From a virus (Duplodnaviria > Caudoviricetes): 53,261 nt of DNA. The notes under the pieces were generated by a model that saw only the letters and a list, made by a program, of their open reading frames with translations, was not told the origin of the DNA and made no database searches. The stretch lies in the IMG/VR virus record IMGVR_UViG_3300025646_000056, positions 1 through 53,261 of that record; one strand, 5' to 3'. Positions 266 through 49,940 of this stretch are shown in pieces. Position numbers and translations under genes: made by a program. Each line of letters opens with the position of its first letter. The stretch's first letter is position 1.

Positions 266-1162
266 ATGTCATTCAAGGATCTCAAAAAGCGTTCAAACAC
301 TTCCATCGAAAAGCTCAATGCCGAGATGGAGAAGCTCAACAAGGGTGGCGAATCGTACAAGGACGATCGGTTCTGGCGCCCATCACAGGATCAGGCGGGT
401 AACGGATACGCCGTGATTCGTTTCCTTCCGCCTTCGGATGGAGAAGACCTGCCGTGGTGTCGTCTGTTCTCCCATGCGTTCAAGGGACCAGGCGGTTGGT
501 ACATCGAGAACTCGCGTACGACTCTCGGTGACAAGGATCCCGTGTCAGAGATGAACACTCGTCTCTGGAACAGTGGTCTGGAATCGGACAAGGATATTGC
601 TCGGGATCGTAAGCGTAAGCTGAACTACATCTCGAACATCTATGTTGTGTCCGATCCGTCGAACCCAGAGAACGAAGGAAAGGTTTTCCTTTACAAGTAT
701 GGCAAGAAGATTTTCGACAAGATCAACGAGGCCATGAACCCTGAGTTTGAGGATGAGAACGCAGTCAATCCGTTCGACTTCTGGGCAGGTGCTAACTTCC
801 GACTGAAGATTCGTAAGGTGGCTGGTTACACCAACTACGACAAGTCCGAGTTTGAGCAACCATCTGCTCTACACGAAGACGATGAAGTGCTTGAGAAGAT
901 TTACAACTCGCAGCACAAGCTGAATGAGTTTACCGATGCTTCCAACTTCAAGTCTTATGAAGAACTCAAGGAGAAGCTCGACAAGGTTCTGACTGGAACC
1001 GAGTACGCTTCAAAGGCAGAGAACACTCGTCTCGACGATGAGTATGAAGAGCGAACTTCACCTAGCATGCCCGAAAAGGCGGCTTCTTCGGCACCGACGA
1101 TTGAGCCGGAGGAGGAGGACGATGCGATGTCCTACTTTGAACGCCTTGCGAACGAGGGTTGA
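266..1162 (+). CDS. g32: single-stranded DNA-binding protein gp32
   Basis: DDRFWRP, GNGYAVIRFLP, GGWYIENS, NPFDFWAGANFRLKIRKV, NYDKSEF and an acidic tail ending YFERLA. Confidence 0.98.
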   Translation: MSFKDLKKRSNTSIEKLNAEMEKLNKGGESYKDDRFWRPSQDQAGNGYAVIRFLPPSDGEDLPWCRLFSHAFKGPGGWYIENSRTTLGDKDPVSEMNTRLWNSGLESDKDIARDRKRKLNYISNIYVVSDPSNPENEGKVFLYKYGKKIFDKINEAMNPEFEDENAVNPFDFWAGANFRLKIRKVAGYTNYDKSEFEQPSALHEDDEVLEKIYNSQHKLNEFTDASNFKSYEELKEKLDKVLTGTEYASKAENTRLDDEYEERTSPSMPEKAASSAPTIEPEEEDDAMSYFERLANEG

Positions 1163-1181
1163 CCAACCCTTAAGGTGAAGG

Positions 1182-1210
1182 AGAGGGGTCTTCGGACCCC
1201 TCTTTTTTTT
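1182..1210 (+). terminator. rho-independent terminator with cUUCGg tetraloop
   Basis: AGAGGGGTC-TTCG-GACCCCTCT followed by a T run; at the junction of convergent genes. Confidence 0.92.
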
Positions 1211-48013: not shown

Positions 48014-48448
48014 ATGACTTTCGATGAACTGAAAAAACTTGTTGCAAAAGATATGGAGATTGACGATACTCAACTTGATCTTGAGTCGTTAAAGATTCCG
48101 CAACTTCACAACAGATACTTGAACTTTCTCCACGAAGAAAGATTCACTCTCAAGAAAATGAGTTTCGATCTTGCTGAACTTCGAAGATCGAAGTGGGAAT
48201 ATTTCACTGGCAAAATGAGTCAAGAAGAGTTAGAACGAAGAGGTTGGGAACCGTTCGATCTCAAGATTCTCAAAGCAGACATTGACATGTATATGGATGC
48301 AGATCAAGATGTTATTCGAATGAAACAACGAATCACATATCAAGAGGAAAAAGTTTTCTATCTTGAATCTGTTCTCAAGGAAATCAATCAGCGTAACTGG
48401 GAAATTCGAAACGCTATTGAGTGGAGGAAGTTCGTCTCAGGCTCATAA
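48014..48448 (+). CDS. uvsY: recombination mediator UvsY
   Basis: D..IDDTQLDLESLKIPQLH.RY, WEYFTGK, PFDLKILK.D, I.QRNWEIRNAIEW. Confidence 0.93.
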   Translation: MTFDELKKLVAKDMEIDDTQLDLESLKIPQLHNRYLNFLHEERFTLKKMSFDLAELRRSKWEYFTGKMSQEELERRGWEPFDLKILKADIDMYMDADQDVIRMKQRITYQEEKVFYLESVLKEINQRNWEIRNAIEWRKFVSGS

Positions 48449-48455
48449 ATAGAGC

Positions 48456-49940
48456 ATGAGCGATTTAGTTATTGAAAAAGTTGATGAGGTAAATGTTCGC
48501 GTTCGATGCGAACGAAGCCTTGCAAAAGAACTCTCAGACTTCTTTACCTTTAAAGTGCCAGGTCATAAGTATATGCCTGCGTATCGCAGCAAAGTCTGGG
48601 ACGGAACTGTAAAACTATACAACATGTTTTCGCAGGAGATTTACACAGGTCTTCTGGATTATGTCATTTCGTTTGCAAAGGAAAGAGAATATTCCTACCA
48701 ACTCACACTTGATATTCCAAACAACAAGGCAGACGAACTTCTCGTTCGTAGATACATGGAAAATAACCTGAAGATATCAGTAAAGAATAAACTGATAAGT
48801 CCGCACGACCATCAGGTAAACGCAATTACACATGCAATCAGAAAGGAAAGATGTCTTCTTCTTTCTCCAACAGGATCAGGAAAAAGTCTTATCATTTATA
48901 CATTGATGAGACATTATCTGGAGAAGACGAACAAAAAGATTCTGGTGATCGTACCAACTACAGGCCTAGTTACTCAAATGTATTCAGATTTTTCAGATTA
49001 CTCCGGGGTAAACGAGTGGAATGTGGAAGAAAATGTTCACAAGATTTATGGTGGTCAAGAAAAGAATACAAACAAAAGAGTTGTAATTTCCACATGGCAA
49101 TCTTTGTACAAGATGCCTGCAAAGTTCTTTAAAGATTTTGAAGTTGTATTTGGAGATGAGTGTCACCTGTTTAAAGCCAAATCACTCACAAGTATCATGT
49201 CGAAACTGAAAGAGGCCAGATACCGCATAGGAACCACAGGAACCCTCGATGGCGCGTTGACACATAAATTAGTTATCGAGGGACTGTTTGGACCTGTTAA
49301 AGATGTAACTACTACAAAAGAGTTAATGGACAAGGACATTCTCTCCGAACTTAAAATTGATTGTATTCTGTTGGACTATAATGACGAGGACAAGAAACTA
49401 GTATCTCATCTCAAGTACCCAGATGAAATGAAATGGTTAGTCACCAACGAAAGAAGAAACACATTCATCTCTCGTTTATCTGCATCAACCACTGGAAATA
49501 CACTCGTACTCTTTCAGTTCGTGGAAAACCACGGTAAACACCTTTACGAAAAGATCAAATTAGAGAATCCAAACAAAAAGGTTTTTCTTATTCACGGTGG
49601 AATTGAAACTGACGACCGTGAAAGAGTCCGAGGAATTGCAGAGAAAGAAAAAGATGCAATCATCGTGGCTTCGTATGGAACATTCTCTACTGGTATAAAT
49701 ATTCGAAACCTTCACAATATCATTTTTGCGTCACCATCAAAATCTCGTATTCGTATTTTACAATCTATTGGAAGACAACTTAGAAAACATGAATCGAAAA
49801 AAGTTGCCAAATTGTACGATATAGGCGATAATCTACAATGGAAGAAGAAGATGAACCATACTCTGCGTCACTTCTTCGAAAGAATAAAGATATATAAGAT
49901 AGAAGGTTTTAGTTTTAAAACCATCAAGATAAAAATCTAG
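48456..49940 (+). CDS. uvsW: DNA/RNA-DNA helicase UvsW
   Basis: SF2 motifs SPTGSGKS, DECH, GTTGT, QSIGR.LR; CATAAATA late-promoter-like box at 48444-48451. Confidence 0.97.
   Translation: MSDLVIEKVDEVNVRVRCERSLAKELSDFFTFKVPGHKYMPAYRSKVWDGTVKLYNMFSQEIYTGLLDYVISFAKEREYSYQLTLDIPNNKADELLVRRYMENNLKISVKNKLISPHDHQVNAITHAIRKERCLLLSPTGSGKSLIIYTLMRHYLEKTNKKILVIVPTTGLVTQMYSDFSDYSGVNEWNVEENVHKIYGGQEKNTNKRVVISTWQSLYKMPAKFFKDFEVVFGDECHLFKAKSLTSIMSKLKEARYRIGTTGTLDGALTHKLVIEGLFGPVKDVTTTKELMDKDILSELKIDCILLDYNDEDKKLVSHLKYPDEMKWLVTNERRNTFISRLSASTTGNTLVLFQFVENHGKHLYEKIKLENPNKKVFLIHGGIETDDRERVRGIAEKEKDAIIVASYGTFSTGINIRNLHNIIFASPSKSRIRILQSIGRQLRKHESKKVAKLYDIGDNLQWKKKMNHTLRHFFERIKIYKIEGFSFKTIKIKI

Follow-up and report, generated by a model that had tools for sequence, protein, structure and literature searches.

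Why should a phage genome keep a restriction site almost exclusively where one particular base stands beside it? The question is raised by the pentamer CCWGG (W, A or T) in a 53,261-nt stretch of viral DNA, IMG/VR record IMGVR_UViG_3300025646_000056, which in its full length we refer to as the window. A sequence-only reading had proposed that the host restricts CCWGG and that a phage-encoded modification of cytosine in a GC or GCC context protects overlapping sites. Our analysis supports this shield interpretation in a narrowed form: a phage modification of the cytosine in GC[C/T], of the type made by a C5-cytosine methyltransferase and a TET dioxygenase, probably shields CCWGG from host restriction. 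The GC[C/T] specificity of these enzymes is taken from the literature, and the footprint statistics, the co-occurrence of the two genes in relatives and a same-host control come from the present analysis.

Flank-dependent survival of CCWGG

Exactly 49 CCWGG sites occur in the window, starting at positions from 488 to 48558 (span 488..48562). As had been estimated by eye (about 49 sites, about 47 of them flanked), precisely 47 of the 49 have G immediately 5' or C immediately 3', which is GCCWGG on one strand or the other. G precedes 16 sites, C follows 31, no site has both and two have neither; these are the same two TCCTGGA exceptions that had been picked out by eye.

4316, 6370, 8756, 9112, 15745, 16714, 17690, 21279, 21981, 27741, 28972, 29344, 31684, 38974, 42080, 48558: GCCWGG on the + strand (16 sites)
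488, 7760, 9454, 11063, 11090, 13479, 14467, 14806, 15541, 19165, 22551, 23418, 24576, 25551, 29308, 29437, 29566, 30145, 30223, 31414, 31702, 31798, 32868, 35682, 35730, 36402, 37075, 38062, 38698, 38755, 42772: CCWGGC, equal to GCCWGG on the - strand (31 sites)
31048..31052, + strand: first exception, TCCTGGA without a G or C flank, in-frame CCT-GGA (Pro-Gly)
36350..36354, + strand: second exception, TCCTGGA in frame 2 (ATC-CTG-GAA), within the large terminase gene

Counting NCCWGGN heptamers against a codon-preserving null bears out the impression. In 1000 synonymous-codon shuffles of 41 open reading frames (ORFs), which make up 97% of the window, the unflanked form HCCWGGD (H, not G; D, not C) is expected 56.7±5.1 times and is observed twice; the shuffle minimum was 36, and 0 of 1000 shuffles were as low. 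Sites with one flank are in excess (47 observed against 15.9±3.2 expected, shuffle maximum 26), and the doubly flanked GCCWGGC does not depart significantly from expectation (0 against 1.1). The flanked fraction of 47/49 has a binomial probability of 1e-27, the shuffles giving 23%, which is close to, though below, the third that had been guessed for chance. The total is merely mildly lowered, from 74 expected to 49. In other words, CCWGG sites are re-flanked synonymously, not lost, and the claim that only unprotected sites were purged holds in that HCCWGGD is nearly gone, with the amendment that this came about mostly by re-flanking. CCSGG (S, C or G) is not avoided (20 against 19.7 expected), and the target is thus CCWGG rather than CCNGG.

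The recoding can be followed codon by codon. In-frame Pro-Gly pairs (CCW-GGN) account for 47 of the 49 sites, the other two, at 36350 and 42080, lying in frame 2. GGC is a minor glycine codon in the window, as had been noticed (119/1369, or 8.7%). After CCA or CCT, it is used in 32 of 33 pairs that follow a base other than G and in 0 of 14 that follow G (Fisher test, P=4e-11). The proposed move of proline to CCC or CCG is likewise seen, in 17 of 64 Pro-Gly pairs.

The preponderance of Pro-Gly codon pairs is what would be expected if a codon-pair or translational bias produced CCA-GGC without any constraint at the DNA level. Counter to this, the glycine codon follows the last base of the preceding codon, the rule is identical on both strands, and frames 1 and 2 are emptied too (2 sites observed against ~20 expected in the two combined). 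Furthermore, CAGGC shows no enrichment where it is not part of CCAGGC (30 against ~26), and related cyanophages have no such bias. The rule reads both flanks, is strand-symmetric and varies with how the preceding codon ends; it therefore reflects a constraint on double-stranded DNA and not a codon-pair effect. On the grounds of the preceding-base dependence and the shuffle results we reject codon-pair bias, whose probability is negligible.

Some other processes were set aside by reasoning. Decay by deamination of 5-methylcytosine (5mC) inside CCW-GGN would be non-synonymous and cannot yield a flank switch, and type IV, methyl-dependent restriction would select against modified, not unmodified, sites. 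Very-short-patch repair was set aside by reasoning alone.

Other restriction sites and the context of the proposed shield

Many other sites have been purged from the window, and the phage was thus clearly exposed to restriction. Against 200 codon shuffles, AGATCT (0 observed/23.0 expected), ATGCAT (0/12.9), AACGTT (0/15.8) and GCAATG (0/16.4) are strongly depleted. Further depletion affects GGTACC (0/10.6), TACGTA (0/9.6), CTGCAG (1/10.5), GTGCAC (0/4.1) and ACGT (ratio 0.22). GATC, GGCC, GGWCC, CCGG and CCSGG are not avoided.

General methylation of all GpC is rejected for the window phage, as ATGCAT, GCAATG, GTGCAC and CTGCAG, all containing G-C-A, are purged, the first three to zero. The context is therefore GC[C/T] and not every GpC, so that the earlier proposal of a shield in GC or GCC context stands only in this narrowed form. 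Read from site survival, the pattern suggests a modification confined to G-C-[C/T], for which a 5mC or 5-hydroxymethylcytosine (5hmC) chemistry is predicted. 7-Deazaguanine motifs of the DpdA type place the modified G in GA and GGC contexts; such modification is rejected, since CCWGGA without a 5' G is purged, with only 2 TCCTGGA left. No TGT-like gene was seen in the annotation of the cultured relative Melnitz, introduced below.

If the shield is general, other sites that begin with C should show the same dependence on G, and the few survivors among them do.

39363..39368: surviving CCATGG, flanked TCCATGGC
43857..43862: surviving CCATGG, flanked on both sides GCCATGGC
40204..40209: surviving CCTAGG, flanked ACCTAGGC
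22444..22449: sole CTGCAG, flanked CCTGCAGC (G-C-T on the - strand)
39969..39974: sole CTCGAG, flanked TCTCGAGC
376, 12199, 19169, 21978, 22939, 28099, 31040, 38684, 45273, 46254, 46530, 46725, 47322, 49252, 51734: GCGC (15 sites)

All five survivors of CCATGG (two), CCTAGG, CTGCAG and CTCGAG are G/C-flanked, and unflanked copies of these hexamers number 0 against 17.8 expected (CCATGG, 0 against 5.9; CTGCAG, 0 against 6.4; CTCGAG, 0 against 3.9). The dependence, for which a test of other C-initial palindromes had been suggested, does not extend to CCSGG and CCGG, which, with ACGT, AGCT, TTAA, GATC and GGWCC, are control motifs without a flank effect in the window. GCGC occurs 15 times where 29.4 are expected, and in all 15 the second C is followed by C or T on at least one strand, so that each contains GC[C/T] (chance ~0.013).

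A cultured relative and a same-host control

The closest cultured phages, ~60% identical in the large terminase, are Melnitz, a phage of OM43 bacteria (Methylophilales), and T4-like cyanophages. Melnitz has 68 CCWGG (140,691 of 141,548 bases examined), of which 0 are unflanked, 52 have one flank and 16 have both. We tested the predictions of a GC[C/T] shield in this genome against 100 codon shuffles. CCGG survives only when flanked (unflanked, 0 observed against 54.1 expected; flanked, 15 against 23.6), as does CTGCAG, whose outer C then becomes G-C-T (unflanked, 0 against 37.8; flanked, 14 against 19.6). GGWCC, in which GpC-Y is impossible, is erased (0 against 65.9), and CGCG, which offers only G-C-G, is nearly so (1 against 60.9), whereas GGCC, in which G-C-C is always present, is spared (79 against 69.8). 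Finally, in 64 of 64 GCGC sites at least one strand reads GCGC[C/T]. This set of results could not be produced by one oddly specific nuclease.

Venkman, an unrelated siphophage that infects Melnitz's host strain, H5P1, and is free of the methyltransferase/TET cassette described below, serves as a same-host control. Its 38.6 kb contain 0 CCWGG, against ~22 expected, and also 0 GATC, ACGT, CCGG, GGCC, GCGC and TCGA. In MEP401, a phage of another OM43 strain, 30 of 37 CCWGG are unflanked. The contrast between Venkman and MEP401 indicates, indirectly, that strain H5P1 restricts CCWGG and that the shield is the phage's and not the host's. Together with the other sites purged from the window, Venkman's lack of CCWGG agrees with the earlier claim that CCWGG restriction acts on the phage. 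Melnitz retains 264 ACGT and 206 TCGA, and Venkman has 0 of each (~123 expected each); these two motifs cannot contain GC[C/T], so either Melnitz has a second protection or the exposure histories of the two phages differ.

Alternatively, there may be no modification, the host nuclease itself recognizing the 7-bp sequence HCCWGGD with the outer G excluded, so that G-flanked sites would not be substrates. Taken alone, the CCWGG data of the window fit this equally well, and GCCAGG-type sites stand at a neutral frequency (9 against 8.2 expected). Recognition positions that read 'not G' occur in a few enzymes, for example Bsp1286I (GDGCHC). Such a nuclease would leave unexplained the same flank rule at CCGG, CTGCAG and GCGC in Melnitz and the contrast there between spared GGCC and erased GGWCC. 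It would also leave unexplained the 5/5 flanked survivors of four hexamers and the 15/15 GCGC sites in the window, the loss of even G-flanked sites from Venkman on the same host, and the tracking of the rule with the cassette. We regard it as very unlikely.

The methyltransferase/TET cassette in relatives

Gene 5 of Melnitz is a C5-cytosine methyltransferase (PF00145, 7e-55). Gene 6 (L085:5208-6194), which overlaps it by 20 nt and is annotated as hypothetical, is a Tet_JBP dioxygenase (PF12851, 3.6e-11). In the part of the Melnitz paper available to us, only a 'type II DNA methylase' is mentioned and the gene 6 dioxygenase is not (PMC9004378). The available text of Burke et al. 2021 (PMC8256090) states that methyltransferases associated with phage TETs 'mainly recognize a GpC[C/T] consensus', with clade IIa strict for GpC[C/T], clade I excluding GpCA and clade IIb taking any GpC. 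The TETs turn Gp5mC[C/T] into 5hmC, which is open to further tailoring (PMC8256090).

Two scans of IMG/VR, using the TET of Melnitz and a profile of 10 TET sequences, yielded 107 TET-bearing loci totalling 921 kb. A methyltransferase was seen in 96 of the 107, at most 300 nt from the TET in 91 of those 96. The loci hold 212 CCWGG, of which 7 are unflanked against 406 expected from composition, and 205 are flanked against 199; many loci are close Melnitz relatives, so these sites are not independent. Flanked sites are thus at expectation. Even so, every group of loci binned by TET identity obeys the rule, the unflanked/flanked counts being 0/34 (at least 90%), 0/50 (75-90%), 4/101 (63-75%), 3/18 (54-63%) and 0/2 (below 54%).

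A survey of 80 loci anchored on the large terminase shows which relatives obey the rule. Many do (unflanked/flanked: L070 0/14, L011 0/8, L017 0/8, L032 0/12), and two (L008, L009) have hardly any CCWGG. More distant contigs of ~35% GC break it (L048 18/3, L063 19/10, L066 11/0). The cyanophages S-RIM8, S-SSM2 and P-SSM2, which are absent from the 16 records with a TET match, have 34, 47 and 37 unflanked CCWGG, respectively, in regions of ~41.6 kb. Two further rule-breakers, G007 (100% complete) and G008 (90%), possibly near-duplicates of each other, have 11 unflanked among 19 CCWGG in each sampled locus; neither contains the C5-methyltransferase or the TET family, for both of which the Melnitz positive control was positive. 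S-CRM01 encodes a C5-methyltransferase 39% identical to that of Melnitz and no TET, and the rule is absent (30 of 45 CCWGG unflanked); a distant methyltransferase homolog alone is thus not sufficient. Among non-T4 isolates with TET-like genes, P12024L has only 2 CCWGG, and HTVC112P, with a cassette of the ParB/FkbM type, has 4 unflanked sites.

Almost every cassette-bearing contig lacks unflanked CCWGG, although patterns of avoidance at other sites differ widely. This could mean that the nuclease is the phage's own, serving for instance in the degradation of host DNA and cutting CCWGG unless the outer C is modified, so that the phage's own sites must stay shielded. Counter to this, CCGG and GGWCC are purged from cassette-bearing contigs nearly as universally as unflanked CCWGG, and no candidate nuclease was identified. 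Moreover, the unrelated and cassette-free Venkman has lost CCWGG on the same strain and MEP401 on another has not, the pattern expected of strain-specific host restriction. A phage nuclease is accordingly a highly improbable source of the footprint.

With respect to other sites in these phages, GGTACC is missing from every T4-like phage region examined, including S-RIM8, S-SSM2 and P-SSM2 (0 against 4-17 expected by composition), and also from Venkman and MEP401. AGATCT is missing from the window, Melnitz, Venkman, MEP401, S-RIM8 and most TET-bearing loci.

How the shield would work

In the explanation that we favor, the host population would cut CCWGG and about a dozen other sites, and the phage, once its DNA has been replicated, would modify the cytosine of 5'-G-C-[C/T]-3'. 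Two enzymes would probably act in turn, a C5-methyltransferase that makes 5mC and a TET-type dioxygenase that takes it to 5hmC, possibly with sugars added later. In GCCWGG the outer C of the site lies in G-C-C and would be modified on that single strand, enough to block cleavage. Selection would then remove only sites that cannot be shielded (HCCWGGD), mostly by synonymous change of the flank rather than by destruction of the site: after a codon that does not already end in G, Pro-Gly would take the form CCA-GGC, the other way out being a move of proline to CCC or CCG. We infer that the CCWGG nuclease is host-encoded, that modification of one strand suffices for protection, and that the cassette lies in the unsampled ~70% of the window phage.

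Gene content of the window and its lineage

The window is an entire assembly with a completeness rating of 29%. It is the structural half of the genome of an uncultured, aquatic, T4-like myovirus, with the following genes.

266-1162, + strand: gp32-like single-stranded-DNA-binding protein
3181-21174, + strand: baseplate and tail genes
21189-28748, + strand: 2519-aa structural ORF in the baseplate/tail-fibre region
between the 2519-aa ORF and the terminase genes, + strand: neck proteins
34568-36617, + strand: terminase small and large subunits
between the terminase and protease genes, + strand: sheath, tube and portal
44086-44739, + strand: prohead protease
between the protease and major capsid genes, + strand: scaffold
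45890-47335, + strand: major capsid
3' of the major capsid gene, + strand: UvsY and UvsW-like helicase
51290-52336, + strand: gp47-like
52333-52908, + strand: DenV-like pyrimidine-dimer DNA glycosylase (PF03013, 4e-11), between the gp47-like and gp46-like genes
3' end of the window, + strand: start of a gp46-like gene

ORFs of similarly large size to the 2519-aa ORF occupy the equivalent position in Melnitz and the cyanophages. Among public runs, at least half of positions 28001-38000 is present in 9 rows, 8 labelled freshwater and 1 aquatic. They belong to five coded studies, among which the source of the window may itself be included. The window phage may therefore be non-marine, in contrast to its cultured relatives.

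No DNA-modification gene occurs among the window's ORFs, which gave no match to TET, to C5-methyltransferase or to PF01555. This agrees with the earlier placement of the modification gene outside the window, although a search for cytosine methyltransferases in the sampled contigs of the lineage found none there either. Walking the lineage beyond the window, from gp47 and then from gp44, we reached gp46, RNase H, gp45, gp44, gp62 and then an island of glycosyltransferases; no polymerase, methyltransferase of the C5 type or TET was encountered on the walk. Using blastn, lineage contigs and TET-bearing loci show no overlap above ~76% identity. The avoidance fingerprint of the window (ATGCAT and GCAATG at zero, GATC kept) was found in no TET-bearing locus of at least 9 kb, nor in a second set.

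The island lies after gp44 and gp62 at L183:6156-15897, on a contig whose gp44 is 97% identical to that of the window lineage, and its start is also present at L159:18386-19498. It encodes a DruA-like protein (PF14236), an FkbM-family methyltransferase, three glycosyltransferases (of DXD type, GT1-like, and GT2 with TPR) and five ORFs without a family match; none of its ORFs resembles TET or C5-methyltransferase. The island could be DNA-tailoring machinery, or unrelated.

Pooled contigs of the window's closest lineage (~100 kb, partly overlapping) hold 8 unflanked and 62 flanked CCWGG, several of the exceptions being one site counted in overlapping contigs. In one lineage exception, and in one among the TET-bearing loci, a GCC abuts the site (G-C-C-CWGG). 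The sister contigs G002 and G003 (82-89% protein identity) span 77 and 89 kb, and in each of them all 8 CCWGG are flanked, as are most GCGC sites. Compared with 49 sites in the 53 kb of the window, they meet the constraint mostly through removal of sites rather than re-flanking, and they retain AGATCT and GCAATG, which the window has purged. G006 (128 kb, 71% complete; L309-L315) has 0 unflanked and 63 flanked GCGC, and 0 AGCT against ~476 expected by composition, which looks like a strict G-C-C-only shield. It also contains a PF01555 (N6/N4 methylase) match at 48287-48778, broken by 5 stop codons.

Several observations weigh against a methyltransferase/TET shield in the window phage. Searches by phmmer and tblastn found neither enzyme in the window, nor in ~20 kb of lineage sequence past its 3' end (L159, L183). 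The same holds for the footprint-bearing fragments G002 and G003 and for the sampled 71% of G006 with its GCC-type footprint, and searches of G001-G006 for PF00145 and PF12851, with Melnitz as positive control, agreed. Flanked CTGCAG (1 against 4.1 expected) and flanked CTCGAG (1 against 2.5) fall below expectation in the window, where G-C-T may shield less well. AGCT is depleted there though it has G-C-T on both strands (ratio 0.54; AAGCTT 5/16.6, TAGCTA 0/6.9), a depletion seen in cassette-free cyanophages as well. GCCTGG is favored over GCCAGG 38:9 (P=5e-4 after allowing for codon usage); the ratio is 40:12 in Melnitz and 84:46 in the first 71 TET-bearing loci. Sequence alone does not reveal whether the C or the G of the pair carries the modification, nor its chemistry. 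In addition, part of one study reports that BstNI cuts fully 5-methylated Xp12 DNA (PMC7653180); protection from all CCWGG enzymes may thus take more than methylation.

These points leave room for a GC[C/T] shield that is real but is made by another pathway, through a different modification of C, or of the G in the complementary R-G-C, by unrecognized enzymes. The footprint alone cannot separate C in GCY from G in RGC, the two genes are missing from the sampled DNA of the window lineage and of G002, G003 and G006, and the island is a possible source. Counter to this, all cassette-negative lineage records are fragments, the 107 loci selected for TET follow the rule (7/212 unflanked), and the published specificity is an exact match. 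Moreover, the island ORFs have no likeness to TET, and T4-like phages often carry glycosyltransferases for unrelated purposes; deazaguanine motifs would protect CCWGGA also, yet it is purged. On balance we consider another pathway distinctly unlikely. It is likewise unlikely, if worth bearing in mind, that the window lineage in particular makes its GC[C/T] shield without C5-methyltransferase and TET, with the glycosyltransferase, FkbM-methyltransferase and DruA-like genes beside gp62 as the candidate enzymes. If this were true, the footprint would be the earliest trace of a novel pathway for sequence-specific DNA modification.

Significance and comparison with known systems

The purpose of phage TET/C5-methyltransferase pathways is openly debated, and modification limited to GpC seemed too sparse for protection of a genome. 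A 2023 preprint from the discovering group, a follow-up on glycosyltransferases, states in its available text that broad protection 'seems unlikely' and describes as unknown whether the modification is aimed at phage DNA or at that of the host (bioRxiv 10.1101/2023.12.21.572611). The genomes offer an answer: sites able to overlap GC[C/T] are kept at the expected frequency only in the overlapping form, and others are erased, whereas a phage of the same host that has no cassette erases both kinds. Such a pattern is evidence from evolution that the modification is directed at phage DNA and shields it from restriction, for which one modified strand would be enough, and that a genome can be synonymously recoded around a partial modification. 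It also provides a computational route by which a modification motif and the restriction repertoire of a host may be inferred from metagenomic sequence of uncultured phages alone. Melnitz and its OM43 host are a ready experimental system.

The enzymes and their motif, the avoidance of restriction sites and blocking by overlapping methylation are already published. What appears to be new is that restriction sites survive according to their flanks and that this marks the C5-methyltransferase/TET pathway across a whole genome; among the papers listed in our literature searches, none reports a flank footprint of the GCCWGG type, and none ties CCWGG to 5mYOX. The measured GpC[C/T] specificity of the phage C5-methyltransferase/TET (5mYOX) system (PMC8256090, in the part available) equals the context of the footprint, in which G-C-C and G-C-T are shielded and G-C-A and G-C-G are not. 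In the available parts of these papers (PMC8256090; bioRxiv 10.1101/2023.12.21.572611), enzymes from metagenomic contigs were expressed in E. coli and the biological role was left open. Here, the phage genomes themselves show the action of a shield, having been rewritten around the modification, although the cassette was not seen in the window's DNA.

As in classical restriction-site avoidance, palindromes lie far below a codon-preserving null (AGATCT, ATGCAT, AACGTT and GGTACC are all at 0). In contrast to it, the depletion of CCWGG is conditional on the flank, with sites converted to a protected form while the total falls only from 74 to 49. The likeness to the hydroxymethylcytosine and glucosyl-hydroxymethylcytosine of T4 is that a T4-like phage would use an oxidized, possibly glycosylated, 5-substituted cytosine against restriction, which is predicted here. 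T4, however, replaces every C before replication by way of the nucleotide pool and has no need to avoid sites. In the present case modification would follow replication and reach only GC[C/T] cytosines, so that sites beyond its protection must still be purged. A further parallel is blocking by overlapping methylation, as with Dcm or CpG overlap on commercial enzymes or with the GpC methylase M.CviPI, in which a methyl group from a different, overlapping recognition sequence stops cleavage. What is a nuisance or a tool in the laboratory would here be an organizing principle of the synonymous coding of a genome.

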